Assembly (NCBI GenBank): GCA_964016885.1
Contig: OZ024744.1
Span: forward strand, 115,320,001 to 115,384,000
From: Eledone cirrhosa
Lineage: Eukaryota
Direction of reading: 5' to 3'
DNA: 64,000 nt
Positions 3,603 to 64,000 of the stretch are shown here, piece by piece (position 1 is the stretch's first letter; the number at the start of each line of letters is the position of its first letter). The position numbers and the translations under genes were made by a program. The notes beneath the pieces were generated by a model, which was given only the letters and a program-made list of their open reading frames with translations, was not told the origin of the DNA and made no database searches.

Positions 3603-6600
3603 TGGTACACCCAGCTTCAATGTTGCTCAGAAGAAAGAAGCTTGGAAATGTTACTATGAGAGGTTAATGAATGTAGAGAATGAATGGGAGGAAGGGAGAG
3701 TCTACGACTAACTGACCCAACAGAAGGACCAGCTTTTGAAGTTGACAGTTATAGGGCCAAAGAAGCAATCAAGGAGATGAAGAATGATACAGCAAGAGAG
3801 CAACTGAAGCAATTAAGGTGTGTCGGGGATAGTCACTGAGATACTGAGAAAGCATCTGAAGAAGTTGGAGTTAAGACAGTAACCCTCAAAAATCAATCAA
3901 GTAATACATGACGAAGTCATACCCAATGACTAGTCTGACAGTATAATAGTCAATTATTTCTATGGTACAGACATCTCTCACCAACCTAGTCTACCAGATA
4001 ATATAGGACAGAGACATACACAATGACTGGTCTAACAGTATAATAGTCAATTATTTCTATGGTACAGACATCTCTCACCAACATAGTCTACCAGATAATA
4101 TAGGACAGAGACATACACAATGACTGGTCTAACAGTATAATAGTCAATTATTTCTATGGTACAGACATCTCTCACCAACATAGTCTACCAGATAATATAG
4201 GACAGAGACATACACAATGACTGGTCTAACAGTATAATAGTCAATTATTTCTATGGTACAGACATCTCTCACTAACCTAGTCTACCAGATAATATAGGAC
4301 AGAGACATACCCAATGACTGGTCTAACAGTATAATAGTCAATTATTTCTATGGTACAGACATCTCTCACTAACCTAGTCTACCAGATAATATAGGACAGA
4401 GACATACCCAATGACTGGTCTAACAGTATAATAGTCAATTATTTCTATGGTACAGACATCTCTCACTAACCTAGTCTACCAGATAATATAGGACAGAGAC
4501 ATACCCAATGACTGGTCTGACAGTATAATAGTCAATTATTTCTATGGTACAGTCATCTCTCACCAACATAGTCTACCAGATAATATAGGACAGAGACATA
4601 CCCAATGACTGGTCTGACAGTATAATAGTCAATTATTTCTATGGTACAGACATCTCTCACCAACCTAGTCTACCAGATAATATAGGACAGAGACATACAC
4701 AATGACTGGTCTAACAGTATAATAGTCAATTATTTCTATGGTACAGACATCTCTCACCAACATAGCCTACCAGATAATATAGGACAGAGACATACACAAT
4801 GACTGGTCTAACAGTATAATAGTCAATTATTTCTATGGTACAGACATCTCTCACTAACCTAGTCTACCAGATAATATAGGACAGAGACATACCCAATGAC
4901 TGGTCTAACAGTATAATAGTCAATTATTTCTATGGTACAGACATCTCTCACTAACCTAGTCTACCAGATAATATAGGACAGAGACATACCCAATGACTGG
5001 TCTAACAGTATAATAGTCAATTATTTCTATGGTACAGACATCTCTCACTAACCTAGTCTACCAGATAATATAGGACAGAGACATACCCAATGACTGGTCT
5101 AACAGTATAATAGTCAATTATTTCTATGGTACAGACATCTCTCACTAACCTAGTCTACCAGATAATATAGGACAGAGACATACCCAATGACTGGTCTGAC
5201 AGTATAATAGTCAATTATTTCTATGGTACAGTCATCTCTCACCAACATAGTCTACCAGATAATATAGGACAGAGACATACCCAATGACTGGTCTGACAGT
5301 ATAATAGTCAATTATTTCTATGGTACAGACATCTCTCACCAACATAGTCTACCAGATAATATAGGACAGAGACATATCCAATGACTGGTCTAACAGTATA
5401 ATAGTCAATTATTTCTATGGTACAGTCATCTCTCACCAACATAGTCTACCAGATAATATAGGACAGAGACATACCCAATGACTGGTCTGACAGTATAATA
5501 GTCAATTATTTCTATGGTACAGTCATCTCTCACCAACATAGTCTACCAGATAATATAGGACAGAGACATACCCAATGACTGGTCTAACAGTATAATAGTC
5601 AATTATTTCTATGGTACAGACATCTCTCACTAACCTAGTCTACCAGATAATATAGGACAGAGACATACCCAATGACTGGTCTAACAGTATAATAGTCAAT
5701 TATTTCTATGGTACAGTCATCTCTCACCAACATAGTCTACCAGATAATATAGGACAGAGACATACCCAATGACTAGTCTAACAGTATAATAGTCAATTAT
5801 TTCTATGGTACAGTCATCTCTCACCAACATAGTCTACCAGATAATATAGGACAGAGACATACCCAATGACTGGTCTAACAGTAGAATAATCAATTATTTC
5901 TATGGTACAGACATCTCTCACTAACATAGTCTACCAGATAATATAGGACAGAGACATACCCAATGACTGGTCTAACAGTATAATAGTCAATTATTTCTAT
6001 GGTACAGACATCTCTCATTAACATAGTCTACCAGATAATATAGGACAGAGACATACCCAATGACTGGTCTAACAGTATAATAGTCAATTATTTCTATGGT
6101 ACAAACATCTCTCACCAACATAGTCTACCAGATAATATAGGACAGAGACATACCCAATGACTGGTCTAACAGTATAATAGTCAATTATTTCTATGGTACA
6201 GACATCTCTCACCAACATAGTCTACCAGATAATATAGGACAGAGACATACCCAATGACTGGTCTAACAGTACAATAATCAATTATTTCTATGGTACAGAC
6301 ATCTCTCACTAACCTAGTCTACCAGATAATATAGGACAGAGACATACCCAATGACTGGTGCAGCAGTACAATCATAAATTGCTACAAGGTCAAGGGTGAT
6401 GCTTTAGAGAGGAGCAACTATAGAGGAATATAATTAATGGGCCAAATTATGAAAGTGAGAGAAAGAGTTATTGCACTACTAAGAAGAGAAAGAGTTAAAT
6501 TAGATGAGGTGCAGTTTGGTTCCATGCGTGTGTAAAGTATTACAGATTCACTTTTTTTAGTGAAACAACTACATGGGAAGTTTCTAACAATTAGTGTTTG

Positions 6601-6740
6601 TTGATGGGGAGAAAGCATTTCACAGAATAGTTCATCCTGTCATCTGGTGGTCCTAAAAGAACCAAGATGTAGGAGGAATGACTAATGGCAGTAGAGGATC
6701 CATGAGTAGGTAATGAGTTTATTAACAAAGTCAAGGTACA
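3603..6740 (+). mobile_element. Decayed RTE-clade LINE ORF fragment (linker to RT N-terminus), split by an internal 97-bp tandem array
   Basis: The left part translates KKEAWKCYYERLMNVENEWEE. The right part translates PNDWCSSTIINCYKVKGDALERSNYRGI*LMGQIMKVRERVIALLRRERVKLDEVQFG...EKAF, colinear with the RTE RT at 40370-40050. Stops and frameshifts are present. Confidence 0.88.
3920..6358 (+). repeat. 97-bp tandem satellite, ~25 copies, derived from RTE ORF sequence
   Basis: Period 97 (CAATGACTGG at 4021 and 4118). The unit translates LTNIVYQII*DRDIPNDWSNSIIVNYFYG. Confidence 0.95.
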
Positions 6741-6744
6741 AACC

Positions 6745-37050: not shown

Positions 37051-37094
37051 AAATGGTAAAGGGTTAACACAACATATAATATATATATATAACA

Positions 37095-38496: not shown

Positions 38497-40372
38497 CATC
38501 ATCATCATTTAACAGCTATCTTCCACGCTAGCATGGGTTTAGACGGGAATTGTCCTACTTGAGGCAAGATTGGTCGGGTGACCATGTCTCGCTCGTATAG
38601 GACTGCCCGGTAGGTTTTCTATGGCTGGATGCCCTTCCTTATGCCAACCAGTGTGGACTGGGAGGTTTTAACTGTGTTACCTACACGGCCACATTACAGC
38701 GTGGACTGTGTGTTTTTTTGTTGTGACACCTACACAACCTCATTTATTTTGGACTGGATGTTGTGGTGCCAACATAACTTTACAGAGAAAGGGGTGGTGT
38801 TGGTAGGGGTGGGGTGGAGTAGGGGTAGTGGGATGGGGTGTATATTTGGTTAAGAGGTGCCTACTGACTGTAGGTTTCGCTTTGTACATAGGCAAGGCGG
38901 GTCTTCTGTACTACTGCAAGGAACCAAAGATCTCAGTCCAGTGACATTGTCTTACAGAGGTGTAAGTGTGTAAGGTCGGAATTTATCAAATCGTCCCAGG
39001 TTTTTCTGGATCTACCTACTTCCACCAATGTAACTTCCACCAATTTTGATCGCCCTGCACTTTTTTATACAACTGTCGTCTTTCATGTGCATCACGTGAC
39101 CATACCAACGTAGTCTTCTCTCAAGTAAACAGCATCTGATCCCTCTTATTCCTAATTTCTCACTTAGTTCATTTATGCTTTGCCGTTTGCATATATTAAT
39201 TATTGTTACACATCCAACGGAGCATGGATGCTTCGTTCCTCTCCAGTCTGTGCAGATCCTCTGCACACAAAGCCCATGTCTCACTGCCATGTAACATTGC
39301 TGTTCGTATACAGGCATTATACAATCTGCCTTTCATTTTTAGTGAAAAACCTTTAGTGGCCAACAGTGGTTTAAGCTCTCTGAACTTTTTCCATCCCGTT
39401 TTGACTCTGGCTACTGTACTTTCAGAGCACCCTCCACTACTGCTGATTTTGTCACCCAGGTAACGGAAGGTGTCCACTATTTCTATAGAATCATCTGGGC
39501 AATAGAAGGAGCTAGTATCCTGTGGGCACTTGCTACTTATTGCACCTGAGCATCGGCCACATATAAAATCTATGTTCTTAGATAGCTTACCTGTGATCCC
39601 ACTACATCTTTATGTACCCATAGTTTGCATTTGGGACATAATATGGAATTTCTGCCTACTCCTTTCCTACACACTGAGCATGGCCATTTCCCAGAGGGCA
39701 CCTGAGCCCTAGTTTCCTTTCTACATACTAGAACTTTAGTCTTAGACAAGTTAACTTTAAGGCCTTTTGATTCTAGGCCATGCTTCCATGTTTCGAATTT
39801 CTTCTCTAGTTCAGCCATCAATTCAGCTATGAGAGTTAGATCATCAGCCGGTCTTGTTATATCCTGAAGGGCAATAATAAACAGGAGGGGGCTAAGGACA
39901 GAGCCTTGATGAACACCAACTTTTACGCTAAATTCTTCACTATATTCGTTGTTAATTCTAACCTTGCTGACTGTTTCTTTATACATGGCTTGTATAGCTC
40001 TCACAAGCCATTCATCAACACCTAGTTTTCTAAGAGCCCACCAGATAATGGAGTGGGGGACTCTGTCAAAGGCTTTCTCCAAGTCAACAAAAGCTAAGTA
40101 TAGGGGTTTACTTTTAGCTAGGTGCTTCTCCTGTAGTTGTCGTACAAGGAAAAGAGCGTCCGTGGTACTTTTACCTGACACAAACCCAAACTGCATTTCG
40201 TCTAGATCAATTCGCTCTCTGATTAGTTGCGCTATAACTCTTTCTGTGACCTTCATGACCTGGTCAACCAATTTAATGCCTCTATAGTTTCCCCTACCTA
40301 GGGCATCTCCTTTACCCTTGTAGCAGTTAATATTGATTCTGCTATGCCAGTCATTTGGTATGACCCCATTTT
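38497..40372 (-). mobile_element. RTE-clade LINE, 3' half (RT, PHD-like Cys region, C-terminal domain, 3'UTR, (GAT)n tail); inactive
   Basis: Translates IPNDW...NYRGIKL...MQFGF...FVDLEKAFDRV...GVHQGSVLSPLLF. A deletion removes the residues before ADD (QDITRPADDL, no YADD). Contains WPCSVCRKGVGRNSILCPKC, MLHGSETW and RRLRWYGHV, with frameshifts. (CAT)n at 38497-38508. Confidence 0.93.
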
Positions 40373-40374
40373 TG

Positions 40375-41300
40375 CTGTTGTGTATTGCAGCAATCCAGCC
40401 CCTGAACACGGGTCCCAAGCCTGCCGCCTCGAGCACCGCATCCAGGTAACGATGGTCAACCCTATCAAAAGCCTTAGACTGATCCAAGTTGATCAGGGCC
40501 CCACCGAAGTCGGGTTTACACACTACCCTCTCTATGATGTATCGCATGAGGTGGAGGTTGTCGTGTATGGACCTGGTCAACATTGCGCATGTCTGCACTT
40601 CTCCCACCAGGTTTTCGACGACAAGCGCCAGCCTCTTTGCCAACACCTTGGCCAAAATCTGTAACTCTGTGTTGAGCAGAGTTATGGGCCGGAAGTTGCC
40701 TATGTCATCCCCCTTATTCTCGTCCTTCCTGACTAACGTGATTACGCCTTTGGTCACAGAACTGGGAATTCTCCCGTTCTGCTGCTAGTTGCAGTAGACC
40801 GCTTCCAGGAGACTGGAGAACAAGTCCAGCATTGCTCTGTAAAATTTGTAGGGTAGACCGTCGAGACCTGGAGATTTGCGTTTGCCGCATTGGCTCAGCG
40901 CGTCCCCAATCTCAGTGGCCGAAATCGGCCTTTCGCAGAACTTCGCCTCGCTGTCCGAGAGTCGCAGTAGGCCATTGAGGTATGGACCGAAATCCATAGC
41001 CCCTCCCGGCGTGCCGCCCTGCCTGAACAGTTGAGCAAAGTGCCGCTGAAAAGCCGCGCACATTTGCTTCGGCTCACGTATCACGCATCCGTCTTGGTCC
41101 TTCAAAGACCGAATCGTGTACTTGTTGCCACTTTTCGCCTCCGTCACTCGGGCCCAGCTAACAGCTTTGGCTCCCTCATTTCCCAGAGCACGTATTTTGC
41201 TTCTGACTACGCAACCCTCATGCTTTGTGTCGAAGAACAGGTCCAGGGCCGTTCTTGTCGCTAGCATGCTGGCTCATTGCCACTCCTAAGTGCCTCTTCT
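40375..41300 (-). mobile_element. L1/Tx1-clade LINE ORF2 internal fragment (linker plus RT N-terminal motifs)
   Basis: Translates KSPGLDGLPYKFY...GVITLVRKD...NFRPITLLNTELQILAKVLAKRL...QTCA...RSIHDNLHLMR...LDQSKAFDRVDH. GC-richer than the flanks. In-frame stop at 40785-40787. Confidence 0.85.
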
Positions 41301-41329
41301 ACTTTATCTAAGTTTGTGTAACAGATATA

Positions 41330-41835
41330 TTTCTTTATTAGCCACAAGGGCGCACAAGAAAAGGGGACAATACAAAGACATGCCGGGTATTTTACATACA
41401 GTCGTGTAAAAAATATAAAAACAAACAATTACAACAATCGAAATCCCCAATAGGGGGGAGGCGCCACAAATGGGTTGTTTAATACCCTGTCGATAGAACA
41501 ACCCTCAACTCCAGGAGCGTGTTGTGCAAGTGCTCCTTTCTTCCTTTTGCTCTCTTCCTCAACCTACATGATAAACAGAGAAGGCCCAATCACTCGGGCC
41601 ATTTTCGCTTCATTCACCCACCTTTCAGTAAATTTACTGGGGTGCAGTGCCTCTCTCTCCACCCTGATTCTCCTTCTAAAGTGATACTTAAAGAAGGGAA
41701 TCAATTGTTGTCCGGAGAGAAAGGCATCTGTCCTCAGTCCTCTCAACCTCGTCCACCATATAACTTCTTTCACCATAGCCACCGTACAAAGGAAAACTGC
41801 CTCTCTTTCGTTTTTGAAAGAGGCTGGCAGTTTGT
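41330..41835 (-). mobile_element. L1/Tx1-type LINE C-terminus and 3'UTR, same family as the 3106-3474 insert
   Basis: Translates AMVKEVIWWTRLRGL...FFKYHFRRRIRVERE, followed by a 3'UTR ending GGCTAATAAAGAAA. Nearly identical to 3106-3474. Confidence 0.8.
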
Positions 41836-44792: not shown

Positions 44793-44803
44793 ATTATATT
44801 AGA

Positions 44804-46167
44804 TACAACTCCTATATGCAGATGATCTAACGCTCATAGCTGAATCAATGGCCGAGCTAGAGAAGAAATTCCAAACATGGAAGCACGGCCTAGAATCAAA
44901 AGGCCTTAAAATTAACCTGGCTAAGACTAAAGTTCTAGTTTGTAGGAAAGAAAATAAGGCAACGATCCCTTCCGGGAAATGGCCATGCTCAGTGTGTAGG
45001 AAAGGCGTAGGTAGAAACTCCATTTTATGTCCCAAATGCAAAGTATGGGTGCATAAAAGATGTAGTGGGATCACAGGTAAGCTAACTAAGAACATAGATT
45101 TTACATGTGGCCGGTGCTCTGGTGCAATAAGTAGCAGCAAGGGCCCACAGAATACTAGCTCTTTCAATTGCGCAGAGGGTTCTATAGAAATAGTGGACAG
45201 CTTCCGTTACCTGGGTGACAAAATCAGCAGTGGGAGAGGGTGCTCTGAAAGTACAGTAGATAGAGTCAGAACGGGATGGAAAAAGTTCAGAGAGCTTATA
45301 CCACTATTAGCCACTAAAGGGTTCTCCCTAAAAATGAAAGGCAGGCTGTATGATGCCTGCATACGAACAGCAATGTTGCATGGCAGTGAGACCTGGGCAT
45401 TGTGTGCAGAGGATCTACGCAGACTAGAGAGGAACGAAGCTTGCATGCTCCGCTGGATGTGTAATAGTAACATACGTGAACGGCAAAGCATAAGCGAACT
45501 AAGGAAAAAATTAGAAATAAGAGGGATCAGATGTTGTTTAGTCGAGAGAAGGCTACGTTGGTATGGTCACGTGATGTGCATGAAAGACGACAGCTGTATA
45601 ACAAAGTGCAGGGAAATAAAGATAGACGGTAGCTATGGAGTAGGCAGACCCAGAAAAACCTGGGACGACTTGATAAATTCCAACCTCACACACTTACACC
45701 TCTCCAAGACAATATCACTGGACCGAGACCTTTGGCGGTACTCAGTAATAGAGACGACCCGCCTTACCTAAATACAAAGTAAAACCTACTACAGTCAGTA
45801 GGCATCTCTAACAAAATACACCCCCGTCCCACCACCCCCACCCCATCCACACCGCCCCTTTCAATGTAAAGTTATGTTGGCGCCACAACATCCAGGCCGA
45901 AACAAATGAGATCATGTAGGTGTCACGACAAAAAAACACACAGTCCACGCTGTAATGTGGCCGTGTAGGCAACACGGTAAAAACCTCCCAGACCCACACT
46001 GTAAATGTGGTTGGTGTTAGGAAGGGCATCCAGCTGTAGAAAACCCGCCAGACAGTCCTATGCGAGCAAGACAATCACTCTTGCCTCAAGTGGGAAAACC
46101 CCCGTCCAAACCCATGCAAGCATGGGACATGGACGTTAAACGTTGATGATGTTGATGATGATGATGA
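44804..46167 (+). mobile_element. 5'-truncated RTE LINE with open C-terminal ORF (LLYADDL to stop at 45771), 3'UTR and (GAT)n tail
   Basis: The 307-aa ORF 44848-45771 is preceded in frame by QLLYADDL. Contains the Cys-rich PHD-like motif, FRYLG, HGSETW, LRWYGHV and GRPRKTW. Tail GATGATGTTGATGATGATGATG. Confidence 0.94.
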
Positions 46168-46292: not shown

Positions 46293-46455
46293 TTGTGCAA
46301 CTGCAATAAGAGATAAAAGTAGATAGAGTTCTGGTTTACTGAGTTGTCCTGGTGTTGTCATGTTAGATACTTCCCAGATCTCCCTCAAAGTCTGTCGAGG
46401 AAGATCACTTAACAATAGAATTGGATACAGTCTGTCGGTGATTATACAATCATTC
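46293..46455 (-). CDS. SYNRG: Synergin gamma coding exon B (163 bp, phase 2 to 0), EH-like domain
   Basis: Translates NDCIITDRLYPILLLSDLPRQTLREIWEVSNMTTPGQLSKPELYLLLSLIAVAQ, closely matching the SYNRG EH domain recalled as TAKLYPILMSSGLPRETLGQIWALANRTTPGKLTKEELYTVLAMIAVTQ. TTTCAG acceptor and GTATGT donor. Confidence 0.92.
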
Positions 46456-46843
46456 CTGAAATACAATTTAAGACAAAAAAAATTATTTTCAATATGTGGA
46501 GATAGAAATTGAGTAAGGTTAAGATGTTGGACTACAGAATAATAAAACCTCTTTCATAACAACCTGAACAAACTACACATTTTAAAATCAACATCATCAC
46601 CTTATTTAAAATAAAACCTTTCTTTCAACATAATTTTATATAAGTTTTACATAAGTTATGTTACAAATACCATGTTAATAAAATAATAATTTTAGTAAAT
46701 CCCTCCAAATTTGTTATTAATTGAAATAATGTGTGTTTCATTTGAAATATGACTATGAAATGATTAAAGATTAAAAACATATCTGTTCTCAGAATTAAAA
46801 AAACAAAGGAAATATTAGTGTACATTTCGTTTTCAAAACTTAC

Positions 46844-47024
46844 GCTGAGGAAGCTTCATAAACTTGTCTATAGACATGTGGGATTTGGTCATCTTCTAAG
46901 TAACACCAAGAAGGAAGTGTCTTGAATGGTCCCTGTGGATGCTGAGAAACTGTTGGTGTTGTACTTCCACTGTCTGGTGTTGTACATTGAGGCTGCAGGT
47001 TGGAACTATTCTCATTCACCTCAT
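46844..47024 (-). CDS. SYNRG: Synergin gamma coding exon A (181 bp, phase 1 to 2), just upstream of the EH-like domain
   Basis: AG acceptor at 47025-47026, GTAAGT donor at 46838-46843. Translates EVNENSSNLQPQCTT...KTLPSWCYLEDDQIPHVYRQVYEASS, similar to the vertebrate synergin gamma segment recalled as PPWIYNESLVPDAYKKILE. Splices in frame to the next exon. Confidence 0.85.
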
Positions 47025-47184
47025 CTGTAAATACAACACAATATATTTAACACAATAAAACTAGCAACTCAATCAACTCTTATACTTTTTTATTTTTTTA
47101 GTGATTTAAATCATGCTCTAACCCCGTCCCCTGCTCCATCTCACCATCTCCCGGTCCAGCTGAAGACACAATAAAGACCATCAT

Positions 47185-48279
47185 TCTAGTATCATGATAA
47201 AATACACCCAGTACACTCTGTAAAGTGGTAGTGTTGATGTCATGATATAATACACCCAGTACACTCTGTACTGTGGTAGCGTTGGTGTCACGATACAATA
47301 CACCCAGTACACTCTGTAAAGTGGTAGTGCTGGTGTCATGATAAAATACACCCAGTACACTCTGTAAAGTGGTAGTGTTGGTGTCATGATAAAATACACC
47401 CTGTACACTCTGTAATGTGGTAGTGTTGGTGTCATGATAAAATACACCCGATATACTCTGTAATGTGGTAGTGTTGGTGTCATGATATAATACACCCAGT
47501 ACACTCTGTAAAGTGGTAGTGTTGGTGTCATGATAAAATACACCCAGTACACTCTGTAAAGTGGTAGTTTTGGTGTCATGATAAAATACACCCAGTACAC
47601 TCTGTAAAGTGGTAGTGCTGGTGTCATGATAAAATACATCCAGTAAACTCTGTAATGTGGTAGTGTTGGTGTCACGATACAATACACCCAGTACACTCTG
47701 ATAAGTGGTAGTGTTGGTGTCATGATATAATACACCCAGTACACTCTGTAAAGTGGTAGTGTTGGTGTCATGATATAATACACCCAGTACACTCTGTAAA
47801 GTGGTAGTGTTGGTGTCATGATAAAATACACCCAGTAAACTCTGTAAAGTGGTAGTGTTGGTGTCATGATATAGTACACCCAGTACACTCTGTAAAGTGG
47901 TAGTGTTGGTGTCATGATAAAATACACCCGATATACTCTGTAAAGTGGTAGTGTTGCTGTAATGATATAATACAATCAGTACACTCTGTAATATGGTAGT
48001 GTCGGGGTGTCATGATAAAATACACCAATACACTCCGTAAAGTGGTAGTGTTAGTGCCATGATATAATACACCCAGTACACTCTGTAAAGTGGTAGTAGT
48101 GGTGTCATGATCTAATACACCCAGTACAATCCGTAAATGGGTAGTGTTGGTGTCATGATAGAATACACCTCTTAAACTCTGTAATGTGGTAGTGTTAGTG
48201 CCATGATATAATAAAGCCAGTAAACTCTGTGAAGTGGTAGTGTTGGTGTCATGATAAATTAGATCAAATACACTCTGCA
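47185..48279 (+). repeat. 48-bp tandem satellite, ~22 copies, derived from the RTE 3'UTR
   Basis: Unit GGTGTCATGATAAAATACACCCAGTACACTCTGTAAAGTGGTAGTGTT aligns with the RTE 3'UTR GGTGACACGGTAAAAAGGCTCCCAGTCCACACTGTAAATGTGGTTGGTGTT (reverse complement of 43578-43628; also 45968-46018). Confidence 0.92.
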
Positions 48280-51200
48280 AATATAACCTCTACATTAACT
48301 ACCGATGTTTCACTACCATTTAACATTACATCAGATGTCCATTGAAACATGTTAGCTTCATTTCTCTCCAGTCTCTATATAACCTCTACATTAACTATCA
48401 TATCTCACCACCATGTAACATTACATCAAATGTCCATTGAAACATGTTAGCTTCATTTCTCTCCAGTCTCTATATAACCTCTACATTAACTACCCATGTC
48501 TCACTACCATGTAACATTACATCACAGGGCCATTAAAACATGTTTGCTTCATTTCTCTCCAGTCTCTATATAACCTCTACATTAACTATACATGTCTCAC
48601 TACCATGTAACATTACATCGCAGGGACATTGAAACATGCTAGCTTCATTTATCTCCAGTCTCTGTATAACCTCTACATTAACTACCCATATGTCACTACC
48701 ATGTAACATTACATCAGATGTCCATTGTAACATGTTAGCTTCATGTCTCTCCAGTCTCTATATAACCTCTACATTAACTACCCATGTCTCACTACCATGT
48801 AACATTACATCAGATGTCCATTGAAACATGCTGGCTTCATTTCTCTCCAGTCTCTATATAACCTCTACATTAACTACCCATGTCTCACTACCATGTAATA
48901 TTACATCACATGTCCATTGAAACATGCTAGCTTCATGTCTCTCCAGTCTCTGTATAACCTCTACATTAACTATCCATGTCTCACTACCATGTAATATTAC
49001 ATCACATGTCCATTGAAACATGCTAGCTTCATTTCTCTCCAGTATCTATATAACCTCTACATTAACTACCCATGTCTAACTACCATGTAACATTACATCA
49101 GATGTCCATTGAAACATGTTAGCTTCATTTCTCTCCAGTCTCTATATAACCTCTACATTAATTACCCATGTCTCACTACCATGTAACATTACATCACAGG
49201 GCCATTGAAACATGCTAGCTTCATGTCTCTCCAGTCTCTATATAAACTCTACATTAACTACCCATGTCTCACTACCATGTAACATTACATCAGATGTCCA
49301 TTGACACATGTTAGCTTCATTTCTCTCCAGTCTCTATATAACCTCTACAGTAACTACCCATGTCTCACTACCATGTAACATTACATCAAATGTCCATTGA
49401 AACATGCTAGCTTCATTTCTCTCCAGTCTGTGTATAACCTCTACATTAACTACCATGTCTCACTACCATGTAACATTACGTCAGATGTCCATTGAAACAT
49501 GCTAGCTTCATTTCTCTCTAGTCTCTATATAACTTCAACATTAACTACCCATGTCTCACTACCATGTAACACTACATCACATGTCCATTGAAACATGCTA
49601 GCTACATGTCTCTCCAGTATCTATATAACCTCTACATTAACTACCCATATCTCACTACCATGTAACATTACATCAGATGTCCATTGAAACATGCTAGGTT
49701 CATATCTCTCAAGTCTCTATATAACCTCTACATTAACTACCCATGTCTCACTACCATGTAACATTGCATCAGATGTCCATTGAAACATGCTAGCTTCATT
49801 TCTCTCTAGTCTCTATAAAACCTCTACATTAACTACCCATGTCTCACTAACATGTAACATTACATCAGACGTCCATTGAAACAAAGTAACTTCATTTCTC
49901 TCCAGTCTCTATATAACCTCTACATTAACTACCCATGTCTCACTACCATGTAACATTACATCAGATGTCCATTGAAACATGCTAGCTTCATGTCTCTCCA
50001 GTCTCTATATAACCTCTACATTAACTACCCATGTCTCACTACCATGTAACATTACGTCAGATGTCCATTGAAACATGCTAGCTTCATTTCTATCTTGTCT
50101 CTCTATAACCTCTACATTAACTACACATATCTTACTACCATGTAACATTACATCAGATGTCCATTGAAACATGTTAGCTTCATTTATCTCCAGTCTCTAT
50201 GTAACCTCTACATTAACTACCCATGTCTCACTACCATGTAACATTACATCAGATGTCCATTGTAACATGTTAGCTTCATGTCTCTCCAGTCTCTATTTAA
50301 CCTCTACATTAACTACCCATGTCTCACTACCATGTAACATTACATCAGATGTCCATTGAAACATACTAGCTTCATGTCTCTCCAGTCTCTATATAACCTC
50401 TACATTAACTACCATGTCTCACTACCATGTAACATTACATCAGTTGTTCATTGAAACATGTTAACTTCATGTCTCTCCAGTCTCTATATAACCTCTACAT
50501 TAACTACCCATGTCTCACTACCATGTAACATTACATCAGATGTCCATTGAAACATGCTAGCTTCATGTCTCTCCAGTCTCTATATAACCTCTACAGTAAC
50601 TACCATGTCTCACTACCATGTAACATTGCATCAGATGTCCATTGAAACATGCTAGCATCATTTCTCTCCAGTCTCTCCGTATGACCTCTACACTAACTTC
50701 CTCTGTCTCACTTTCATGTAACATTACATCAGATGTCCATTGAAACATGCTAGGTTCATTTCTCTCCAGTCTCTATATAACCTCTACATTAACTACCCAT
50801 GTCTCACTACCATGTAACATTATATCAGATGTCCATTGAAACATGCTAGCTTCATTTCTCTCCAGTCTCTATATAACCTCTACAGTAACTACCCACGTCT
50901 CACTACCATGTCACATTACATAAGATGTCCATTGAAACATGCTAGCTTCATTTATCTCCAGTCCTATATAACCTCTACATTAACTACCCATGTCTCACTA
51001 CCATGTAACATTACATCAGATGTCCATTGTAACATGTTAGCTTCATGTCTCTCCAGTCTCTATATAACCTCTAGATTAACTACCCATGTCTCACTACCAT
51101 GTAACATTACATCAGATGTCCATTGAAACATGCTAGCATCATTTCTCTCCAGTCTCTCCATATGACCTCTACACTAACTTCCTCTGTCTCACTTCCATGT

Positions 51201-54200
51201 AACATTAAATCAGATCTCCATTGTAACATGCTAGCTTCATACCTCCCCAGTCTCTATATAACCTCTACATTAACTATCATGTCTCACTACCATGTAACAT
51301 TACATCAGATGTCTATTGAAACATGCTAGCTTCATGTCTCTCCAGTCTCTATATAACCTCTACATTGACTACCCATATCTCACTACCATGTAACATTACA
51401 TCAGATGTCCATTGAAACATGCGAGCTTCATTTCTCTCCAGTCTCTATATAACCTCTACATTAACTACCCATGTCTCACTACCATGTAACACTACATCAG
51501 ATGTCCATTGAAACATGTTAGCTTCATGTCTCTCCAGTCTCTATATAACCTCTACATTAACTACCCATGTCTCACTACCATGTAACATTACATTACAGGG
51601 CCATTGAAACATGCTAAGGTCATTACACCCCAGTCTCTATATAACCTCTACATTAACTATCATGTCTCACTACCATGTAACATTACATCAGATGTCTATT
51701 GAAACATGCTAGCTTCATTTCTCTCCGTCTTTATATAACCTCTACATTAACTAACCATGTCTCACTACCATGTAACATTACATCAGATGTCCATTGAAAC
51801 ATGTTAGCTTCATGTCTCTCCAGTCTCTATATAACCTCTACAGTAACTACCCATGTCTCACTAACATGTAATATTATATCAGATGTCCATTGAAACATGC
51901 TAGTTCCATGTGTTTCTAGTCTCTATATAACCTCTACATTAACTACCCATGTCTCACTACCAGGTAACATTACATCAGATGTCCATTGAAACATGCTAGC
52001 TTCATGTCTCTCCAGTCTCTATATAACCTCTACATTAACTACCCATGTCTCACTACCATGTAACATTACATCAGATGTCCATTGAGACATGCTAGGTTCA
52101 TTTCTCTCCAGTCTCTATATAACCTCTACATTAACTACCATGTCTCACTACCATGTAATATTACATCAGATGTCCATTGAGACATGCTAGGTTCATTTCT
52201 CTCTAGTCTCTATATAAGCTCCACATCAACGACCTCTGTCTCACTACCATGTAACATTACATCAGATGTCCATTGAAACATGCTAGCTTCATGTCTCTCT
52301 AGTCTCTATATAACCTCTACATTAACTACTCATGTCTCACTACCATGTAACATTACATCAGATGTCTATTGAAACATGCTAGCTTCATTTCTCTCCAGTC
52401 TCTATATAACCTCAACATTAACTACCCATGTCTCACTACCATGTAACATTACATCAGATTTCCATTGAAACATGCTAGCTTCATTTCTCTCCAGTCTTTA
52501 TTTAACCTCTACATTAACTACCCATGTCTCACTACCATGTAACATTACATCAGATGTCCATTGAAACATGTTAGCTTCATTTCTCTCCAGTCTCTATATA
52601 ACCTCCACATCAACTACCTCTGTCTCACTACCATGTAACATTACATCAGATGTCCATTGAAACATGTTAGCTTCATGTCTCTCCAGTCTCTATATAACCT
52701 CTACAGTAACTACCCATGTCTCACTACCATGTAACATTACATCAGATGTCCATTGAAACATACTAGCTTCATGTCTCTCCAGTCTCTATATAACCTCTAC
52801 ATTAACTACCATGTCTCACTACCATGTAACATTACATCAGTTGTTCATTGAAACATGTTAACTTCATGTCTCTCCAGTCTCTATATAACCTCTACATTAA
52901 CTACCCATGTCTCACTACCATGTAACATTACATCAGATGTCCATTGAAACATGCTAGCTTCATGTCTCTCCAGTCTCTATATAACCTCTACAGTAACTAC
53001 CATGTCTCACTACCATGTAACATTGCATCAGATGTCCATTGAAACATGCTAGCATCATTTCTCTCCAGTCTCTCCGTATGACCTCTACACTAACTTCCTC
53101 TGTCTCACTTTCATGTAACATTACATCAGATGTCCATTGAAACATGCTAGGTTCATTTCTCTCCAGTCTCTATATAACCTCTACATTAACTACCCATGTC
53201 TCACTACCATGTAACATTATATCAGATGTCCATTGAAACATGCTAGCTTCATTTCTCTCCAGTCTCTATATAACCTCTACAGTAACTACCCACGTCTCAC
53301 TACCATGTCACATTACATAAGATGTCCATTGAAACATGCTAGCTTCATTTATCTCCAGTCCTATATAACCTCTACATTAACTACCCATGTCTCACTACCA
53401 GGTAACATTACATCAGATGTCCATTGAAACATGCTAGCTTCATGTCTCTCCAGTCTCTATATAACCTCTACATTAACTACCCATGTCTCACTACCATGTA
53501 ACATTACATCAGATGTCCATTGAGACATGCTAGGTTCATTTCTCTCCAGTCTCTATATAACCTCTACATTAACTACCATGTCTCACTACCATGTAATATT
53601 ACATCAGATGTCCATTGAGACATGCTAGGTTCATTTCTCTCTAGTCTCTATATAAGCTCCACATCAACGACCTCTGTCTCACTACCATGTAACATTACAT
53701 CAGATGTCCATTGAAACATGCTAGCTTCATGTCTCTCTAGTCTCTATATAACCTCTACATTAACTACTCATGTCTCACTACCATGTAACATTACATCAGA
53801 TGTCTATTGAAACATGCTAGCTTCATTTCTCTCCAGTCTCTATATAACCTCAACATTAACTACCCATGTCTCACTACCATGTAACATTACATCAGATTTC
53901 CATTGAAACATGCTAGCTTCATTTCTCTCCAGTCTTTATTTAACCTCTACATTAACTACCCATGTCTCACTACCATGTAACATTACATCAGATGTCCATT
54001 GAAACATGTTAGCTTCATTTCTCTCCAGTCTCTATATAACCTCCACATCAACTACCTCTGTCTCACTACCATGTAACATTACATCACAGGGACTTTAAAA
54101 CATGCTAGCTTCATTTCTCTCCAGTCTCTATATAACCTCTACAGTAACTACCCATGTCTCACTACCATGTAACATTACATCAGATGTCCATTGCAACATG

Positions 54201-57200
54201 ATAGCTTCATTTCTCTCCAGTCTCTATATAACCTCTACGTTAACTACCCATGTCTCACTACCATGTAACATTACATCAGATGTCCATTGAAACATGTTAG
54301 CTTCATTTCTCTCCAGTCTCTATATAACCTCCACATCAACTACCTCTGTCTCACTACCATGTAACATTACATCAGATGTCCATTGAAACATGCTAGCTTC
54401 ATGTCTCTCCAGTCTATATATAACCTCTACATTAACTACCCATGTCTCACCACCATGTAACATTGCATCAGATGTCCATTGAAACATGCTAGCATCATTT
54501 CTCTCCAGTCTCTCCATATGACCTCTACACTAAATTCCTCTGTCTCACTTCCATGTAACATTACATCAGATGTCCATTGAAACATGTTAGCTTCATGTCT
54601 CTCCAGTCTCTATATAACCTCTACAGTAACTACTCATGTCATATTACCATGTAACATTACATCAGATGTCTATTGAAACATGCTAGCTTCATGTCTCTCC
54701 AGTCTCTATATAACCTCTACATTAACTACCCATGTCTCACTACCATGTAACATTACATCAGATGTCCATTGACACATGCTAGCTTCATTTCTCTCCAGTC
54801 TCTATATAACCTCTACATTAACTACTCATGTCTCACTACCATGTAACATTACATCAGATGTCCATTGAAACATGCTAGCTTCATGTCCCTCCAGTCTCTA
54901 TATAACCTCTACATTAACTACCCATGTCTCACTACCATGTAACACTACATCAGATGTCCATTGACACATGCTAGCTTCATTTCTCTCAAGTCTCTGTATA
55001 ACCTCTACATTAACTACTCATGTCTCACTACCATGTAATATTACATCAGATCTCCATTATAACATGCTAGCTTCATATCTCCCCAGTCTCTATATAACCT
55101 CTACAGTAACTACCCATGTCTCACTACCATGTAACACTACATCACAGGGCCATTGAAACATGCTAAGGTCATTACACTCCAGTCTCTGTATAGCCTCTAC
55201 ATTAACTACCCATGTCTCACTACCATGTAACATTACATCAGATGTCCATTGAAACATGCTAGCTTCATGTCTCTCCAGTCTCTATATAACCTCTACATTA
55301 GCTACCCATGTCTCTCTACCATGTAACATTACATCAGATGTCCATTGAAACATGCTAGCTTCATTTCTGTCCAGTCTCTATATAACCTCTACATTAACTA
55401 CCCATGTCTCACTACCATGTAATGTTACATCAGATGTCCATTGAAACATGCTAGCTTCATTTCTCTCCAGTCTCTATATAACCTCTACATTAACTACCAT
55501 GTCTCACTACCATGTAATGTTACATCAGATGTCCATTGAGACATGCTAGGTTCATTTCTCTCTCGTCTCTATATAACCTCTACATTAATTACCCATATCT
55601 CACTACCATGTAACACTACATCAGATGTCCATTGTAACATGCTAGCTTCATGTCTCTCCAGTCTCTATATAACCTCTACATTAACTACCCATGTCACACT
55701 ACCATGTAACATTACATCAGATGTTTATTGAAACATGTTAGCTTCACTTCTATCTTGTCTCTATATAACCTCTACATTAACTACCCATGTCTCACTACCA
55801 TGTAACATTACATCAGATGTCTATTGAAACATGCTAGCTTCATTTCTCTCCAGTCTTTATATAACCTCAACATTAACTACCCATGTCTCACCACCATGTA
55901 ACATTACATCAGATTTCCATTGAAGCATGCTAGCTTCATTTCTCTCCAGTCTTTATTTAACCTCTACATTAACTACCCATGTCTCACTACCATGTAACAT
56001 TACATCAGATGTCCATTGAAACGTGTTAGCTTCATTTCTCTCCAGTCTCTATATAACCTCCACATCACCTACCGCTGTCTCACTACCATGTAACATTACA
56101 TCAGATGTCCATTGAAACATGCTAGCTTCACTTCTCTCCAGTTTCTATATAACCTCTACAGTAACAACCCATGTCTCACTACCATGTAACATTACATCAC
56201 AGGGACTTTAAAACATGCTAGCTTCATTTCTCTCCAGTCTCTATATAACCTCTACATTAACTACCATGTCTCACTACCATGTAACATTACATCAGATGTC
56301 TATTGAAACATGCTAGCTTCATTTCTCTCCAGTCTCTATATAACCTCTACATTAACTACTATGTCTCACTACCATGTAACATTATATCAGATGTCCATTG
56401 AAACATGTTAGCTTCATGTCTCTCCAGTCTCTGTATAACCTCTACATTAACTACCCTTGTCTCACTACCATGTAACATTACATAAGATGTCTATTGAAAC
56501 ATGCTAGCTTCATATCTCCCCAGTCTCTATATAACCTCTACATTAACTACCCATGTCTCACTACCATGTAACATTACATCAGATGTCCATTGAAACATGC
56601 TAGCTTCATTTCTCTCCAGTCTCTATATAACCTCTACATTAACTACCCATGTCTCACTACCATGAAACATTACATCAAATGTCCATTGTAACATGCTAGC
56701 TTCATGTCTCTCCAGTCTCTATATAACCTCTACATTAACTACTCATGTCTCACTACCATGTAACATTACATCAGATGTCTATTGAAACATGCTAGCTTCA
56801 TTTCTCTCCAGTCTCTATATAACCTCAACATTAACTACCCATGTCTCACTACCATGTAACATTACATCAGATTTCCATTGAAACATGCTAGCTTCATTTC
56901 TCTCCAGTCTTTATTTAACCTCTACATTAACTACCCATGTCTCACTACCATGTAACATTACATCAGATGTCCATTGAAACATGTTAGCTTCATTTCTCTC
57001 CAGTCTCTATATAACCTCCACATCAACTACCTCTGTCTCACTACCATGTAACATTACATCACAGGGACTTTAAAACATGCTAGCTTCATTTCTCTCCAGT
57101 CTCTATATAACCTCTACAGTAACTACCCATGTCTCACTACCATGTAACATTACATCAGATGTCCATTGCAACATGATAGCTTCATTTCTCTCCAGTCTCT

Positions 57201-60200
57201 ATATAACCTCTACGTTAACTACCCATGTCTCACTACCATGTAACATTACATCAGATGTCCATTGAAACATGTTAGCTTCATTTCTCTCCAGTCTCTATAT
57301 AACCTCCACATCAACTACCTCTGTCTCACTACCATGTAACATTACATCAGATGTCCATTGAAACATGCTAGCTTCATGTCTCTCCAGTCTATATATAACC
57401 TCTACATTAACTACCCATGTCTCACCACCATGTAACATTGCATCAGATGTCCATTGAAACATGCTAGCATCATTTCTCTCCAGTCTCTCCATATGACCTC
57501 TACACTAAATTCCTCTGTCTCACTTCCATGTAACATTACATCAGATGTCCATTGAAACATGTTAGCTTCATGTCTCTCCAGTCTCTATATAACCTCTACA
57601 GTAACTACTCATGTCATATTACCATGTAACATTACATCAGATGTCTATTGAAACATGCTAGCTTCATGTCTCTCCAGTCTCTATATAACCTCTACATTAA
57701 CTACCCATGTCTCACTACCATGTAACATTACATCAGATGTCCATTGACACATGCTAGCTTCATTTCTCTCCAGTCTCTATATAACCTCTACATTAACTAC
57801 TCATGTCTCACTACCATGTAACATTACATCAGATGTCCATTGAAACATGCTAGCTTCATGTCCCTCCAGTCTCTATATAACCTCTACATTAACTACCCAT
57901 GTCTCACTACCATGTAACACTACATCAGATGTCCATTGACACATGCTAGCTTCATTTCTCTCAAGTCTCTGTATAACCTCTACATTAACTACTCATGTCT
58001 CACTACCATGTAATATTACATCAGATCTCCATTATAACATGCTAGCTTCATATCTCCCCAGTCTCTATATAACCTCTACAGTAACTACCCATGTCTCACT
58101 ACCATGTAACACTACATCACAGGGCCATTGAAACATGCTAAGGTCATTACACTCCAGTCTCTGTATAGCCTCTACATTAACTACCCATGTCTCACTACCA
58201 TGTAACATTACATCAGATGTCCATTGAAACATGCTAGCTTCATGTCTCTCCAGTCTCTATATAACCTCTACATTAGCTACCCATGTCTCTCTACCATGTA
58301 ACATTACATCAGATGTCCATTGAAACATGCTAGCTTCATTTCTGTCCAGTCTCTATATAACCTCTACATTAACTACCCATGTCTCACTACCATGTAATGT
58401 TACATCAGATGTCCATTGAAACATGCTAGCTTCATTTCTCTCCAGTCTCTATATAACCTCTACATTAACTACCATGTCTCACTACCATGTAATGTTACAT
58501 CAGATGTCCATTGAGACATGCTAGGTTCATTTCTCTCTCGTCTCTATATAACCTCTACATTAATTACCCATATCTCACTACCATGTAACACTACATCAGA
58601 TGTCCATTGTAACATGCTAGCTTCATGTCTCTCCAGTCTCTATATAACCTCTACATTAACTACCCATGTCACACTACCATGTAACATTACATCAGATGTT
58701 TATTGAAACATGTTAGCTTCACTTCTATCTTGTCTCTATATAACCTCTACATTAACTACCCATGTCTCACTACCATGTAACATTACATCAGATGTCTATT
58801 GAAACATGCTAGCTTCATTTCTCTCCAGTCTTTATATAACCTCAACATTAACTACCCATGTCTCACCACCATGTAACATTACATCAGATTTCCATTGAAG
58901 CATGCTAGCTTCATTTCTCTCCAGTCTTTATTTAACCTCTACATTAACTACCCATGTCTCACTACCATGTAACATTACATCAGATGTCCATTGAAACGTG
59001 TTAGCTTCATTTCTCTCCAGTCTCTATATAACCTCCACATCACCTACCGCTGTCTCACTACCATGTAACATTACATCAGATGTCCATTGAAACATGCTAG
59101 CTTCACTTCTCTCCAGTTTCTATATAACCTCTACAGTAACAACCCATGTCTCACTACCATGTAACATTACATCACAGGGACTTTAAAACATGCTAGCTTC
59201 ATTTCTCTCCAGTCTCTATATAACCTTTACATTAACTACCTCTGTCTCACTACCATGTAAGATTACATAAGATGTCCATTATAACATGCTAGCTTCATGT
59301 CTCTCTAGTCTCTATATAACCTCTACATTAACTACTCATGTCACACTACCATTTAACATTACATCAGATGTCCATTGAAACATGCTAGCTTCATTTCTCT
59401 CCAGTCTCTATATAACCTCTACATTAACTACCATGTCTCACTACCATGTAACATTACATCAGATGTCTATTGAAACATGCTAGCTTCATTTCTCTCCAGT
59501 CTCTATATAACCTCTACATTAACTACTATGTCTCACTACCATGTAACATTATATCAGATGTCCATTGAAACATGTTAGCTTCATGTCTCTCCAGTCTCTG
59601 TATAACCTCTACATTAACTACCCTTGTCTCACTACCATGTAACATTACATAAGATGTCTATTGAAACATGCTAGCTTCATATCTCCCCAGTCTCTATATA
59701 ACCTCTACATTAACTACCCATGTCTCACTACCATGTAACATTACATCAGATGTCCATTGAAACATGCTAGCTTCATTTCTCTCCAGTCTCTATATAACCT
59801 CTACATTAACTACCCATGTCTCACTACCATGAAACATTACATCAAATGTCCATTGTAACATGCTAGCTTCATGTCTCTCCAGTCTCTATATAACCTCTAC
59901 ATTAACTATCCATGTCTCACTACCATGTAACATTACATCAGATGTTCATTGAAACATGCTAGCTTCATTTCTCTCCAGTCTCTATATAACCTCTACATTA
60001 ACTACCCATGTCTCACTACCATGTAACACTACATCACCGGGCCGTTGAAACATACTAGCTTCATTTCTCTCCAGACTTTCTATAACCTCTACATTAACTA
60101 CCCATATATCACTACCATGTAAAATTACATCAGATGTCCATTGAAACATGCTAGCTTCATTTCTCTCTAGTCTCTCTATAACCTCTACATTAACTACCCA

Positions 60201-63200
60201 TGTCTCACTACCATGTAACATTACAGCAGATGTCCATTGAAACATGTTAGCTTCATGTCTCTCCAGTCTCTATATAAGCTCTACATTGACTACTCATGTC
60301 TCTCTACCATGTAACATTACATCAGATGTCCATTGAAACATGTTAGCTTCATATCTCTCCAGTCTCTATATAACCTCTACATTAACTACCCATGTCTCAC
60401 TACAATTTAACATTACATCAGATGTCCATTGAAACATGCTAGCTTCATTACTCTCCAGTCTCTATATAACCTCTATATTAACTACCCATGTCTCACTACC
60501 ATGTAACATTACATCAGATGTCCATTGAAACATGCTACCTTCATTTCTCTCCAGTCTCTATATAACCTTTACATTAACTACCCATGTCTCACTACCATGT
60601 AACATTACATCAGATGTCCATTGAAACATGCTAGCTTCGTTTCTCTCTAGTCTCTCTATAACCTCTACATTAACTACCCATGTCTCACTACCATGTAACA
60701 TTACATCAGATGTCCATTGAAACATGCTAGCTTCATTTCTCTCCGTCTTTATATAACCTCTACATTAACTAACCATGTCTCACTACCATGTAACATTACA
60801 GCAAATGTCCATTGAAACATGTTAGCTTCATGTCTCTCCAGTCTCTATATAACCTCTACATTAACTACCCATGTCTCACTACCATGTAACATTACATCAG
60901 ATGTCCATTGAAACATGTTAGCTTCATTTCTCTCCAGTCTCTGTATAACCTCTACATTAGCTACCCATGTCTCACTACCATGTAACATTACATCAGACGT
61001 CCATTGTAACATGCTAGCTTCATGTCTCTACAGTCTCTATATAACCTCTACAGTAACTACCCATATCTCACTACCATGTAACATTACATCAGATATCCAT
61101 TGAAACATGCTAGCTTCATGTCTCTCCAGTCTCTATATAACCTCTACATTAACTACCCACGTCTCACTACCATGTAACATTACATCAGATGTCCATTGAA
61201 ACATGCTTGCTTCATTTCTCTCCAGTCTCTATATAACCTCTACATTAACTACCCATGTCTCACTACCATGTAACATTACATCAGATGTCCATTGAAACAT
61301 GCTACCTTCATGTCTCTCCAGTCTCTATATAACCTCTCCATTAACTACCCATGTCTCACTACCATGTAACATTACATCAGATGTCCATTGAAACATGCTT
61401 GCTTCATTTCTCTCCAGTCTCTATATAACCTCTACATTAACTACCCATATCTCACTACCATGTAACATTACATCAGATGTCCATTGAAACATGCTAGCTT
61501 CATTTCTCTCCAGTCTCTATATAACCTCTACATTAACTACCCATGTCTCACTACCATGTAACATTACATCAGATGTCCATTGAAACATGCTAGCTTCATT
61601 TCTCTCCAGTCTCTATATAACCTCTACATTACCTACCCATGTCTCACTACCATGTAACATTACATCAGATGTCCATTGACACATGCTAGCTTCATTTCTC
61701 TCCAGTCTCTATATAACCTCTACAGTAACAACCCAGGTCTCACTACCATGTAACATTACATCAGATGTCCATTGAAACATGTTAGCTTCATGTCTCTCAA
61801 GTCTCTACATAACCTCTACATTAACTACCCATGTGTCACTACCATGTAACATTACATCAGATGTCCATTGAAACATGCTAGGTTCATTTCTCTCCAGTCT
61901 CTATATAAACTCTACATTAACTACCCATGTCTCACTAGCATGTAGCATTACATCAGATTCCCATTGAAACATGTTAACTTCACGTCTCTCTAGTCTCCAT
62001 ATAACCTCTACATTAACTACCCATGTCTCACTACCATGTAACATTACATCAGATGTCCACTGAAACATGTTAGCTTCATGTCTCTCCAGTCTCTATATAA
62101 CCTCTACATTAACTACCCATGTCTCACTACCATGTAACATTACATCAGATGTCCATTGAAACATGCTAGCTTCATTTCTCTCCAGTCTCTGTATAACCTC
62201 CACAGTAACTACCCATATTTCACTACCATGTAACATTACATAAGATGTCCATTGAAACATGCTAGCTTCATTTCTCTCCAATCTCTATATAACCTCTACA
62301 TTGACTACCCATGTCTCACTACCATGTAACATTACATCAGATGTCTATTGAAACATGCTAGCCTCATTTCTCTCCAGTCTCTATATAACCTCTACATTAA
62401 CTACCCATGTCTCACTACCATGTAACATTACATCACAGGGCCATTGAAACATGCTAGCTTCATTTCTCTCCAATCTCTATATAACCTCTACATTAACTAC
62501 CCATGTCTCACTACCATGTAACATTACATCACAGGGCCATTGAAACATGCTAGCTTCATTTCTCTCCAGTCTCTATATAACCTCTACAGTAACTACCCAT
62601 ATCTCACTACCATGTAACATTACATCAGATGTCTATTGAAACATGTTAGCTTCATTTCTCCACAGTCTCTATATAACCTCTACATTAACTACCGATATCT
62701 CACTACCATGTAACATTGCATCAGATGTCCATTGAAACATGCTAGCTTCATTTCCCTCCAGTCTCTATGGAACCTCTACATTAACTACTCATGTCTCACT
62801 ACCATGTAACATTACATAAGATGTCCATTGAAACATGCTAGCTTCATGTCTCTCTCGTCTCTATATAACCTCTACATTAACTACCCATGTCTCACTACCA
62901 TGTAACACTACATCAGATGTCTATTGAAACATGCTAGCTTCATTTCTCTCCAGTCTCTATATAACCTCTAGCTTAACTACCCATATCTCACTACCATGTA
63001 ACATTACATCAGATGTCCATTGAAACATGTTAGCTTCATTTCCCTCCAGTCTCTACATAACCTCTACATTAACTACTCATGTCTCACTACCATGTAACAT
63101 TACATAAGATGTCCATTGAAACATGCTAGCTTCATTTCTCTCCAGTCTCTGTATAACCTCTATGTTAACTACCCATGTCTCACTACCATGTAACATTACA

Positions 63201-64000
63201 TCACAGGGCCATTGAAGCATGCTAGCTTCATTTCTCTCCAGTCTCTATATAACCTCTACATTAACTACCCATGTCTCACTACCATGTAACACTACATCAC
63301 AGGGCCATTGAAACATGCTAGCTTCATTTCTCTCCAGTCTCTATATAACCTCTACATTAACTACCCATGTCTCAGTACCATGTAACATTACATCAGATGT
63401 CTATTGAAACATGCTAGCTTCATTTCTATCTTGTCTCTATATAACCTCTACATTAACTACCCATGTCTCACTACCATGTAACATTACATCACAGGGCCAT
63501 TGAAACATGCAAGCTTCATTTCTCTCCAATCTCTATATAACCTCTACATTAACTACCCATGTCTCACTACCATGTAACATTACATCACAGGGCCATTGAA
63601 ACATGTTAGCTTCATTTCTCTCCAGTCTCTATATAACCTCTACACTAACTACCCATGTCTCACTACCAGGTAACATTACATTACAGGGCCATTGAAACAT
63701 GCTAGCTTCATTTCTCTCCAGTCTCTATATAACCTCTACATTAACTACCCATGTCTCACTACCATGTAACATTACATCAGATGTCCATTGAAACATGCTA
63801 GCTTCATGTCTCTCCAGTCTCTATATAACCTCTACATTAACTACCCATGTCTCACTACCATGTAACATTACATTACAAGGCCATTGAAACATGCTAGCTT
63901 CATATCTCTCCAGTCTCTGTATAACCTCTACAGTAACTACCCATGTCTCACTACCATGTAACATTACATTACAGGGACATTGAAACATGCTAGCTTCAAT
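48280..64000 (-). repeat. 96-bp tandem satellite, >160 copies, running off the right edge, derived from the RTE ORF C-terminal domain
   Basis: Period 96 with occasional 95. The minus strand translates MLHGSETWVVNVEVI*RLERNEASMFQWTSDV, versus RTE MLHGSETWALCAEDLRRLERNEACMLRWMCNS at 45373-45468. Confidence 0.97.

Follow-up and report, generated by a model that had tools for sequence, protein, structure and literature searches.

The stretch analysed here, referred to as the window, comprises 64,000 nucleotides of a 3.0-Gb genome (G000:C28:115,320,001-115,384,000) and contains no N letters. It lies within the gene for synergin gamma (SYNRG), which is encoded on the minus strand. The exon at 46293-46454 matches the solved EH domain of PDB entry 2mx7 (E 2e-14) and octopod synergin gamma proteins at 94-96%. 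A search with P0001 located 15 SYNRG exons, running from 115,494,676 down to 115,129,420, which gives a gene span of at least 365 kb; no exon was found in this search for the first 152 residues of P0001. Run X4, from a second organism, covered two SYNRG exons only. The features of the window, numbered from its first letter, are the following.

3603-3917, plus strand: 5' part of a decayed RTE copy of an old subfamily, which hosts the 97-bp array (70% to RTE nt 1625-1789)
3918-6359, plus strand: 97-bp array, 25 copies, 97% homogeneous, from ORF aa 559-593, antisense to SYNRG (TRF, alignment)
6360-6744, plus strand: 3' part of the RTE copy hosting the 97-bp array (70% to RTE nt 1906-2140)
6745-33380, no strand assigned: 29-bp array with inversions, not detectably RTE-derived (TRF; shuffles)
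33870-37052, no strand assigned: 72-bp array of a dispersed family, not RTE-derived (TRF; shuffles)
37438-37683, minus strand: SYNRG exon, aa 586-677 of P0001 (P0001 search)
38496-40370, minus strand: 5'-truncated RTE copy, 85% to the young element (alignment to RTE)
44807-46163, plus strand: young 5'-truncated RTE copy, 96% to the full-length element, antisense to SYNRG (alignment to RTE)
46293-46454, minus strand: SYNRG EH-domain exon (2mx7, octopod proteins, P0001 search; spliced in run X3)
46843-47026, minus strand: SYNRG exon (~aa 476-533), which comes after the 110-kb intron (P0001 search, run X3 contig)
47192-48281, plus strand: 48-bp array, 22.7 copies, of a genome-wide family from the RTE 3'UTR repeat, no RTE flank (TRF, alignment)
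48281-64000, minus strand: 96-bp array, first 15.7 kb of ~109 kb, from ORF aa 943-978, RTE-sense in SYNRG pre-mRNA (TRF, alignment)

The 97-, 96- and 48-bp arrays are all located inside SYNRG introns. Since SYNRG is on the minus strand, the orientations given in an earlier note on this DNA are correct: in the SYNRG transcript, the 96-bp array is RTE-sense, and the 97- and 48-bp arrays are RTE-antisense.

Other repeats are interspersed with these features. A 370-bp element is present at 3106-3474 and, inverted and 96% identical, at 41330-41691; it breaks up the first 29-bp array, and a 147-bp array found elsewhere (L185) is similar to part of it. A near-perfect (92%) 340-bp palindrome at 38020-38357 is possibly a foldback element. 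At 40373-41330, a fragment encoding reverse transcriptase and endonuclease, which we take to be L1-like, adjoins the RTE copy exactly at the IPNDW segment. C28 (136 Mb) stands in the assembly list behind much smaller chromosomes, a position in which sex chromosomes are often placed. If C28 is a sex chromosome, low recombination could bear on its large arrays.

The parent element and the array units

The reference for all alignments was one real full-length RTE copy of the same genome (L092). Its single ORF of 1075 residues (1152-4376) features an Exo_endo_phos domain (69-286), an RVT_1 domain (599-799) and a PHD finger (815-858). An AP endonuclease followed by a reverse transcriptase in one long ORF is the organization of the RTE clade, as are the GAT-repeat tails found in all four RTE copies checked and the 5' truncation of the copies in the window. 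The name RTE is presumptive, being carried over from the earlier note rather than derived from a reverse-transcriptase tree. The family is abundant (165,245 first-look candidates, of which 124 were scored), and young copies with whole ORFs are present in the genome. In the 3'UTR of the young element, we identified an imperfect two-copy repeat of 48-bp length. An expansion of RTE-BovB in octopuses has been described in the portion of PMC8967140 available. The PHD finger follows the reverse transcriptase in L092, whereas RTE-2_OV features a C2H2 finger in the accessible text of PMC9115989.

Arrays were delimited with TRF, and doubled units were aligned to L092, with 300 shuffles per unit. The 97-bp unit matches ORF residues 559-593, the IPxDW segment, at 65/105 nt (62%) and is RTE-sense on the plus strand. 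The 96-bp unit matches residues 943-978, the HGSETW segment, at 79/108 nt (73%) and is RTE-antisense on the plus strand. The 48-bp unit matches the 3'UTR at 65/88 nt (74%) and is RTE-sense on the plus strand. None of the 300 shuffles reached the score of the respective unit, and the claim that the units correspond to three separate parts of the RTE thus holds. All three are head-to-tail arrays of a unit significantly similar to a transposable element, i.e., TE-derived satellites.

The two RTE copies of the window, proposed earlier as unamplified references, are both present. They are not the sources of the arrays, as they show 85% and 96% identity to the young element and the units only 62-74%. 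The units match older RTE copies better, up to 78-84% over 54-86 nt.

RTE origin was also considered for the 29-bp arrays (6745-33380 and 1-3602) and the 72-bp array, which fill ~33 kb of the window, and no signal was obtained. Between 99 and 235 of 300 shuffles scored as high as these arrays against the RTE, as did 114 of 300 for the 29-bp unit taken from the inverted block 28154-29289. Near its right end (28154-33380), the larger 29-bp array flips orientation repeatedly, in blocks of 0.4-1.1 kb. The 72-bp array is broken by a short dispersed repeat, and its unit also occurs in L160, L162 and L183.

The three arrays differ in their relationship to RTE hosts. Only the 97-bp array is both private to the window and in register in a host: the host alignment at 3603-3917 runs in register into the first unit and resumes in register after the last one. 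Among 53 matches to the 97-bp unit (40 of 119 candidates scored), the 11 that reach at least 96% are all in the window. The unit is poorly similar to its own host flanks (20/38 and 19/42), which fits an old seed amplified late or an imported array. At a locus 3.4 Mb away (L095:5139-5328), the 97-bp junction is present in a single copy, after which the host sequence is 94% like the right flank of the window array over 112 bp.

The 96-bp array extends far beyond the window, from 115,368,281 to ~115,477,370, and consists of ~1,100 units, 164 of which are in the window. Of the 110.4-kb intron that contains it, 84.4 kb were read, and these are array except for two short inserts; in the unread gaps, matches were obtained in a search with the 96-bp unit. 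A 1787-nt contig of run X3, which is transcript-like although the kind of run is not on record, carries the upstream exon at 694-893 and the window exon at 892-1075, and then skips the next intron (ends CT..AC). The giant intron is therefore spliced, its two flanking exons being joined in this one contig. The claim that arrays inflate SYNRG introns is therefore borne out, with ~109 kb of satellite inside a spliced 110-kb intron. The intron is mostly satellite, as in satellite intron gigantism, and is below the megabase scale of that phenomenon.

The giant 96-bp array shows no in-register RTE flank. Further copies of the 96-bp unit, all 92-95% alike, were found at 113.568 Mb, in a 12-copy block and on the far side of the upstream exon. 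The 12-copy block (115,144,178-115,145,307) is located in another SYNRG intron and has an in-register RTE flank on its 3' side. Because it is the only 96-bp site with such a flank, it is a candidate birth site. Arrays of 96 and 59 bp occur together both at 113.57 Mb (L074:3491-5003 and L074:9356-L075) and beside SYNRG (L063:4962 onward), 1.8 Mb apart.

At least 133 matches to the 48-bp unit of the window, with up to 98% identity, are spread over 16 contigs (40 of 272 candidates scored), and another SYNRG intron also contains an array of this family. The flanks of the window array are not RTE and are not shared with those of 12 other arrays of the family. At the ends of the family's arrays, an RTE match in plausible register was observed in 2 of 22 cases, neither in the window. 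A shared carrier element was considered and discarded: apart from a short dispersed repeat of no relation and some scattered bits of 3'UTR, the flanks of the 13 arrays (22 ends) have nothing in common. The 48-bp array arrived from a dispersed family, whose starting point was a repeat that the RTE 3'UTR already contained.

The arrays had been read as three independent seedings at this locus. Different units, different junctions and three parts of the element speak for independence; seeding of all three at the locus is not supported, given the 16 contigs and the register matches of the 48-bp family. As to whether arrays are private or recurrent, the 97-bp array is private, the 96-bp array has at least two other sites and the 48-bp family is dispersed.

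Array families across the gene and the genome

Short pieces of the LINE have become arrays repeatedly, as the earlier note had supposed: 69-, 73-, 80- and 111/112-bp arrays and several 48-51-bp arrays were found elsewhere. Two of these families derive from the same ORF segments as the window arrays.

69-bp arrays in three C28 hosts, at one shared RTE position: L076:8699-10000, L077, L078; L080:6566-7314; L096:4155-4492
73-bp array, ~43 kb, HGSETW segment, without RTE flanks, upstream of SYNRG: L105:1158-10000, L106, L195, L196:1-4352

The 69-bp unit (23 codons) is independent of the 97-bp unit, comes from the same IPxDW segment and occupies ~21 kb at one site. It is in register with its host on both sides in L080 and in L076/L079, and in L096 on the 3' side plus ~55 bp. 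The 111-bp array in L132 and the 49-bp array in L166 are likewise in register in RTE hosts, and the 80-bp array in L097 on its 5' side. The 73-bp unit has ~40 nt in common with the 96-bp unit and a different junction; this array and a weakly matching 54-bp array lie 55-110 kb upstream of the last mapped SYNRG exon. A single duplication fixed in the old subfamily as the seed of both 69- and 97-bp arrays was rejected, as single-copy members exist (L013, L017, L104, L200) and the junctions differ.

Arrays of 65 and 124 bp correspond to the C-terminal region of a different LINE-like element (L062:12-986, L063:1632-3000, L184:3973-5253, L210:1762-3110); the protein similarity that places the 65-bp family in this element is weak (E 0.004-0.006). 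Arrays of 58 bp (L179) and 33 bp (L166) match a very common short dispersed repeat.

To place the locus in context, 78 windows of 10 kb (L111-L188) were taken at fixed positions on C1-C5, C7-C15 and C17-C28 (780 kb), with 20 further windows on C28 between 99.5 and 119.5 Mb; the 98 windows amount to 0.03% of the genome, and one element served as main reference. Tandem repeats account for 300,607 of the 780,000 bases (38.5%), or 28-48% by group, and at least 99% of the sequence is array in 11 of the 78 windows. Satellite DNA appears to be unusually plentiful in this genome, and this may matter more than the SYNRG arrays themselves.

RTE sequences make up 6.3% of the non-tandem DNA in the 78 windows, and RTE-derived arrays make up 6,132 of 98,157 array bases (6.2%). 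A process favouring RTE, as had been proposed, is not evident from these figures. Nor is a preference for this locus: of the 338,676 SYNRG bases read, 72.5% are tandem and 36% of that part is RTE-derived, a share that drops to 3.5% when the giant intron is left out. By count, 11 of 79 arrays (14%; period 30-200, at least 3 copies) are RTE-derived, one of them weakly, and all come from the 3'UTR; set against 6.3% of the DNA, this marks the 3'UTR as a real hotspot. In the C28 windows, 7 of 28 rows (5 of 26 arrays) were RTE-derived, as against none of 280 shuffles; the 3'UTR was again the sole origin.

ORF-derived RTE arrays are absent from the 107 rows of the fixed-position samples. They cluster at SYNRG (two families and two more arrays upstream) and at 104.7-106.3 Mb, which may represent a local excess, both loci having been chosen other than blindly.

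Matches to non-tandem DNA of another locus were found for 60 of 138 units (E<1e-4), compared with 5 of 1380 shuffles, in a set that includes non-random loci and repeated units and in which some "dispersed" matches may be stray satellite monomers. Other repeats, hence, also seed arrays.

Origin, growth and spread of the arrays

The three arrays are LINE-derived satellites that probably stem from genome-wide tandem amplification acting on a very abundant dispersed repeat. They likely reflect ordinary satellite turnover in a very repeat-rich genome, not a gene-specific process or a defence against transposable elements, and are likely neutral passengers tolerated in introns.

Such satellites would be seeded when slippage or repair at a short shared word duplicates a 50-110 bp piece of an old copy. 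The 3'UTR, in which an imperfect 48-bp repeat is built in, would skip this step; this may be the reason that all RTE-derived arrays of the fixed-position samples come from it. Unequal exchange and gene conversion would then lengthen and homogenize the array long after the host has decayed; units are 91-97% identical within arrays, compared with 62-74% to the young element. Finally, blocks would be copied nearby, as for the 96-bp unit (three SYNRG introns and a site 1.8 Mb away), and far, as for the 48-bp unit (16 contigs). Unit identity between loci is about the same as within loci for the 69-bp, 96-bp and most 48-bp sites, which points to the spread of blocks.

Spread may alternatively be guided by homology. 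Ectopic repair would carry an array that arose in one RTE copy to the same position in another, so that old LINEs serve both as seeds and as landing pads; a few segments (IPxDW for the 97- and 69-bp units, HGSETW for the 96- and 73-bp units, the 3'UTR for units of 48-112 bp) would be re-amplified independently and then copied to the same site elsewhere. The 97-bp array, poorly similar to its own host, may have come in this way. The 69-bp arrays of three C28 loci, separated by as much as 1.6 Mb, all occupy one and the same position in the RTE. Their units are as similar between loci as within them (90-92%). For the hosts, identity is 88-92% in the first 80 columns, which comprise the last unit with its edge, and mostly 60-90% farther out. 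That the hosts are less alike than the units is a hint of homology-guided transfer. In L095, similarly, a tract is 82-95% like the last 97-bp unit of the window and its right flank, and 68-82% beyond.

However, identity falls off gradually in these comparisons, and a sharp conversion tract around the 69-bp arrays was not seen in the host comparison. Upstream, L080 and L079 are 68-98% alike, as expected of an old segmental copy, and copies lacking the junction still show 88-98% identity in the segment that follows IPxDW. These loci were found with the 97-bp query and are consequently biased towards that RTE site. Moreover, RTE flanks are mostly missing from the 73-bp array, the second 96-bp site and the arrays of the 48-bp family, so that homology is not needed for spread. 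We consider homology-guided spread unlikely, and the wider picture of old copies as combined seeds and landing pads equally doubtful. If true, a dead LINE family would act as a network for dispersing arrays, through which an intron in a housekeeping gene could grow by 100 kb.

That the 96-bp array is real but over-expanded by the assembly is very unlikely. Long tandem arrays are hard to assemble, the length of this one is taken from the assembly, and two near-identical inserts of ~0.5 kb lie ~4.7 kb apart near its far end. Nevertheless, seven stretches of the array (75.7 kb) contain no N and have units that differ by 5-8%, identity exceeds 97% at no lag between 90 and 4000 bp, and lag spectra are unlike between stretches.

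It is extremely improbable that the arrays, co-transcribed with SYNRG, feed small RNAs against active RTE copies, as the earlier note had suggested. In its favour, run X3 shows SYNRG to be transcribed, with splicing across the intron that contains the array, and this presumably places the arrays in the pre-mRNA; relative to the RTE, the 97- and 48-bp arrays are antisense, and young copies with whole ORFs exist as targets. By 28-mer comparison, however, the arrays are too diverged from young RTE to silence it. For all three arrays, 0% of 28-mers come within 2 mismatches of two young RTE copies. Allowing 4 mismatches raises this to no more than 1.1%, and exact matches extend over 10-11 nt at the longest, short of the near-identity to an active element over 26-31 nt that characterizes piRNA sources. 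Furthermore, the 109-kb 96-bp array is RTE-sense in the transcript, and the intronic antisense RTE copy at 44807-46163, in which 93% of 28-mers are within 2 mismatches, would be much better suited as a source. Amplification of a dispersed repeat, followed by block spread, remains the preferred reading.

Comparison with known systems

The SYNRG arrays are a further instance of a known phenomenon, TE-derived satellites, and exhibit no new mechanism or function. No report of RTE- or LINE-derived satellites in octopods was found in the literature searched, which excluded most subscription papers and supplements. In cephalopod repeat papers, as far as their accessible text goes, the tandem fraction, which amounts to 38.5% of our sample and 72.5% of the SYNRG span read, is set aside or undiscussed. 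For instance, simple and unknown repeats were discarded in PMC8967140, the available text of which contains neither "satellite" nor "tandem", and no treatment of LINE-derived arrays was found in the available parts of PMC9068888, PMC13282606 and PMC9115989.

The view that TE-derived satellites are usually isolated cases does not agree with the human genome, in which 7,276 were counted, accounting for 23% of minisatellites and including 601 from L1 (Ahmed and Liang 2012, PMC3389668, part of the paper). Human hotspots are mainly TEs with an internal repeat (LTR12, L1PA), and both single- and multi-locus families occur. As in human, arrays arise here inside TE copies and grow by local duplication. 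In contrast, human cases mostly consist of ~2 units, while the SYNRG array has ~1,100 units and spans 109 kb inside a gene, and its parent is an RTE-type LINE.

Satellites from LINE ORFs and 3'UTRs are known in whales, hamster, seal and chicken (Zattera and Bruschi 2022, PMC9659126, text in part). Examples are the cetacean common satellite (L1 3' end), PROsat and Pvc20 (L1 ORF2) and chicken HinfI (CR1). There, as here, satellites have arisen from ORF as well as 3'UTR parts of retroelements, and pea PisTR-A, a repeat of the Ogre 3'UTR, parallels the 48-bp family in that a pre-existing 3'UTR repeat was amplified. The cases in the accessible text involve one family per element and species, whereas at least five ORF-derived and several 3'UTR units derive from one LINE family here; the word RTE does not occur in that text.

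Repeated independent birth from similar retroelement regions is also a feature of maize CRM1TR and CRM4TR, the growth of which has been ascribed to gene conversion (Sharma et al. 2013, PMC3648361, available portion). Unlike the arrays described here, those of maize derive from LTR elements, are centromeric and moved little between loci 1.4 Mb apart; in our case, units from different loci are as alike as units from one locus.

Stages of satellite birth can be followed in one genome, from a repeat within the element, through arrays of 4-12 copies in hosts, to a 109-kb block in an expressed gene. This suggests that gene and genome size in the lineage are driven by tandem DNA too, not by transposon insertion alone. 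A coding gene spliced across a satellite intron has its counterpart in Drosophila kl-3 and kl-5 (PMC6508621, in the part available). In these genes, introns are of megabase size and depend on a dedicated spermatocyte programme, whereas the SYNRG intron measures 110 kb, is built from a LINE-derived unit and belongs to a trafficking gene.
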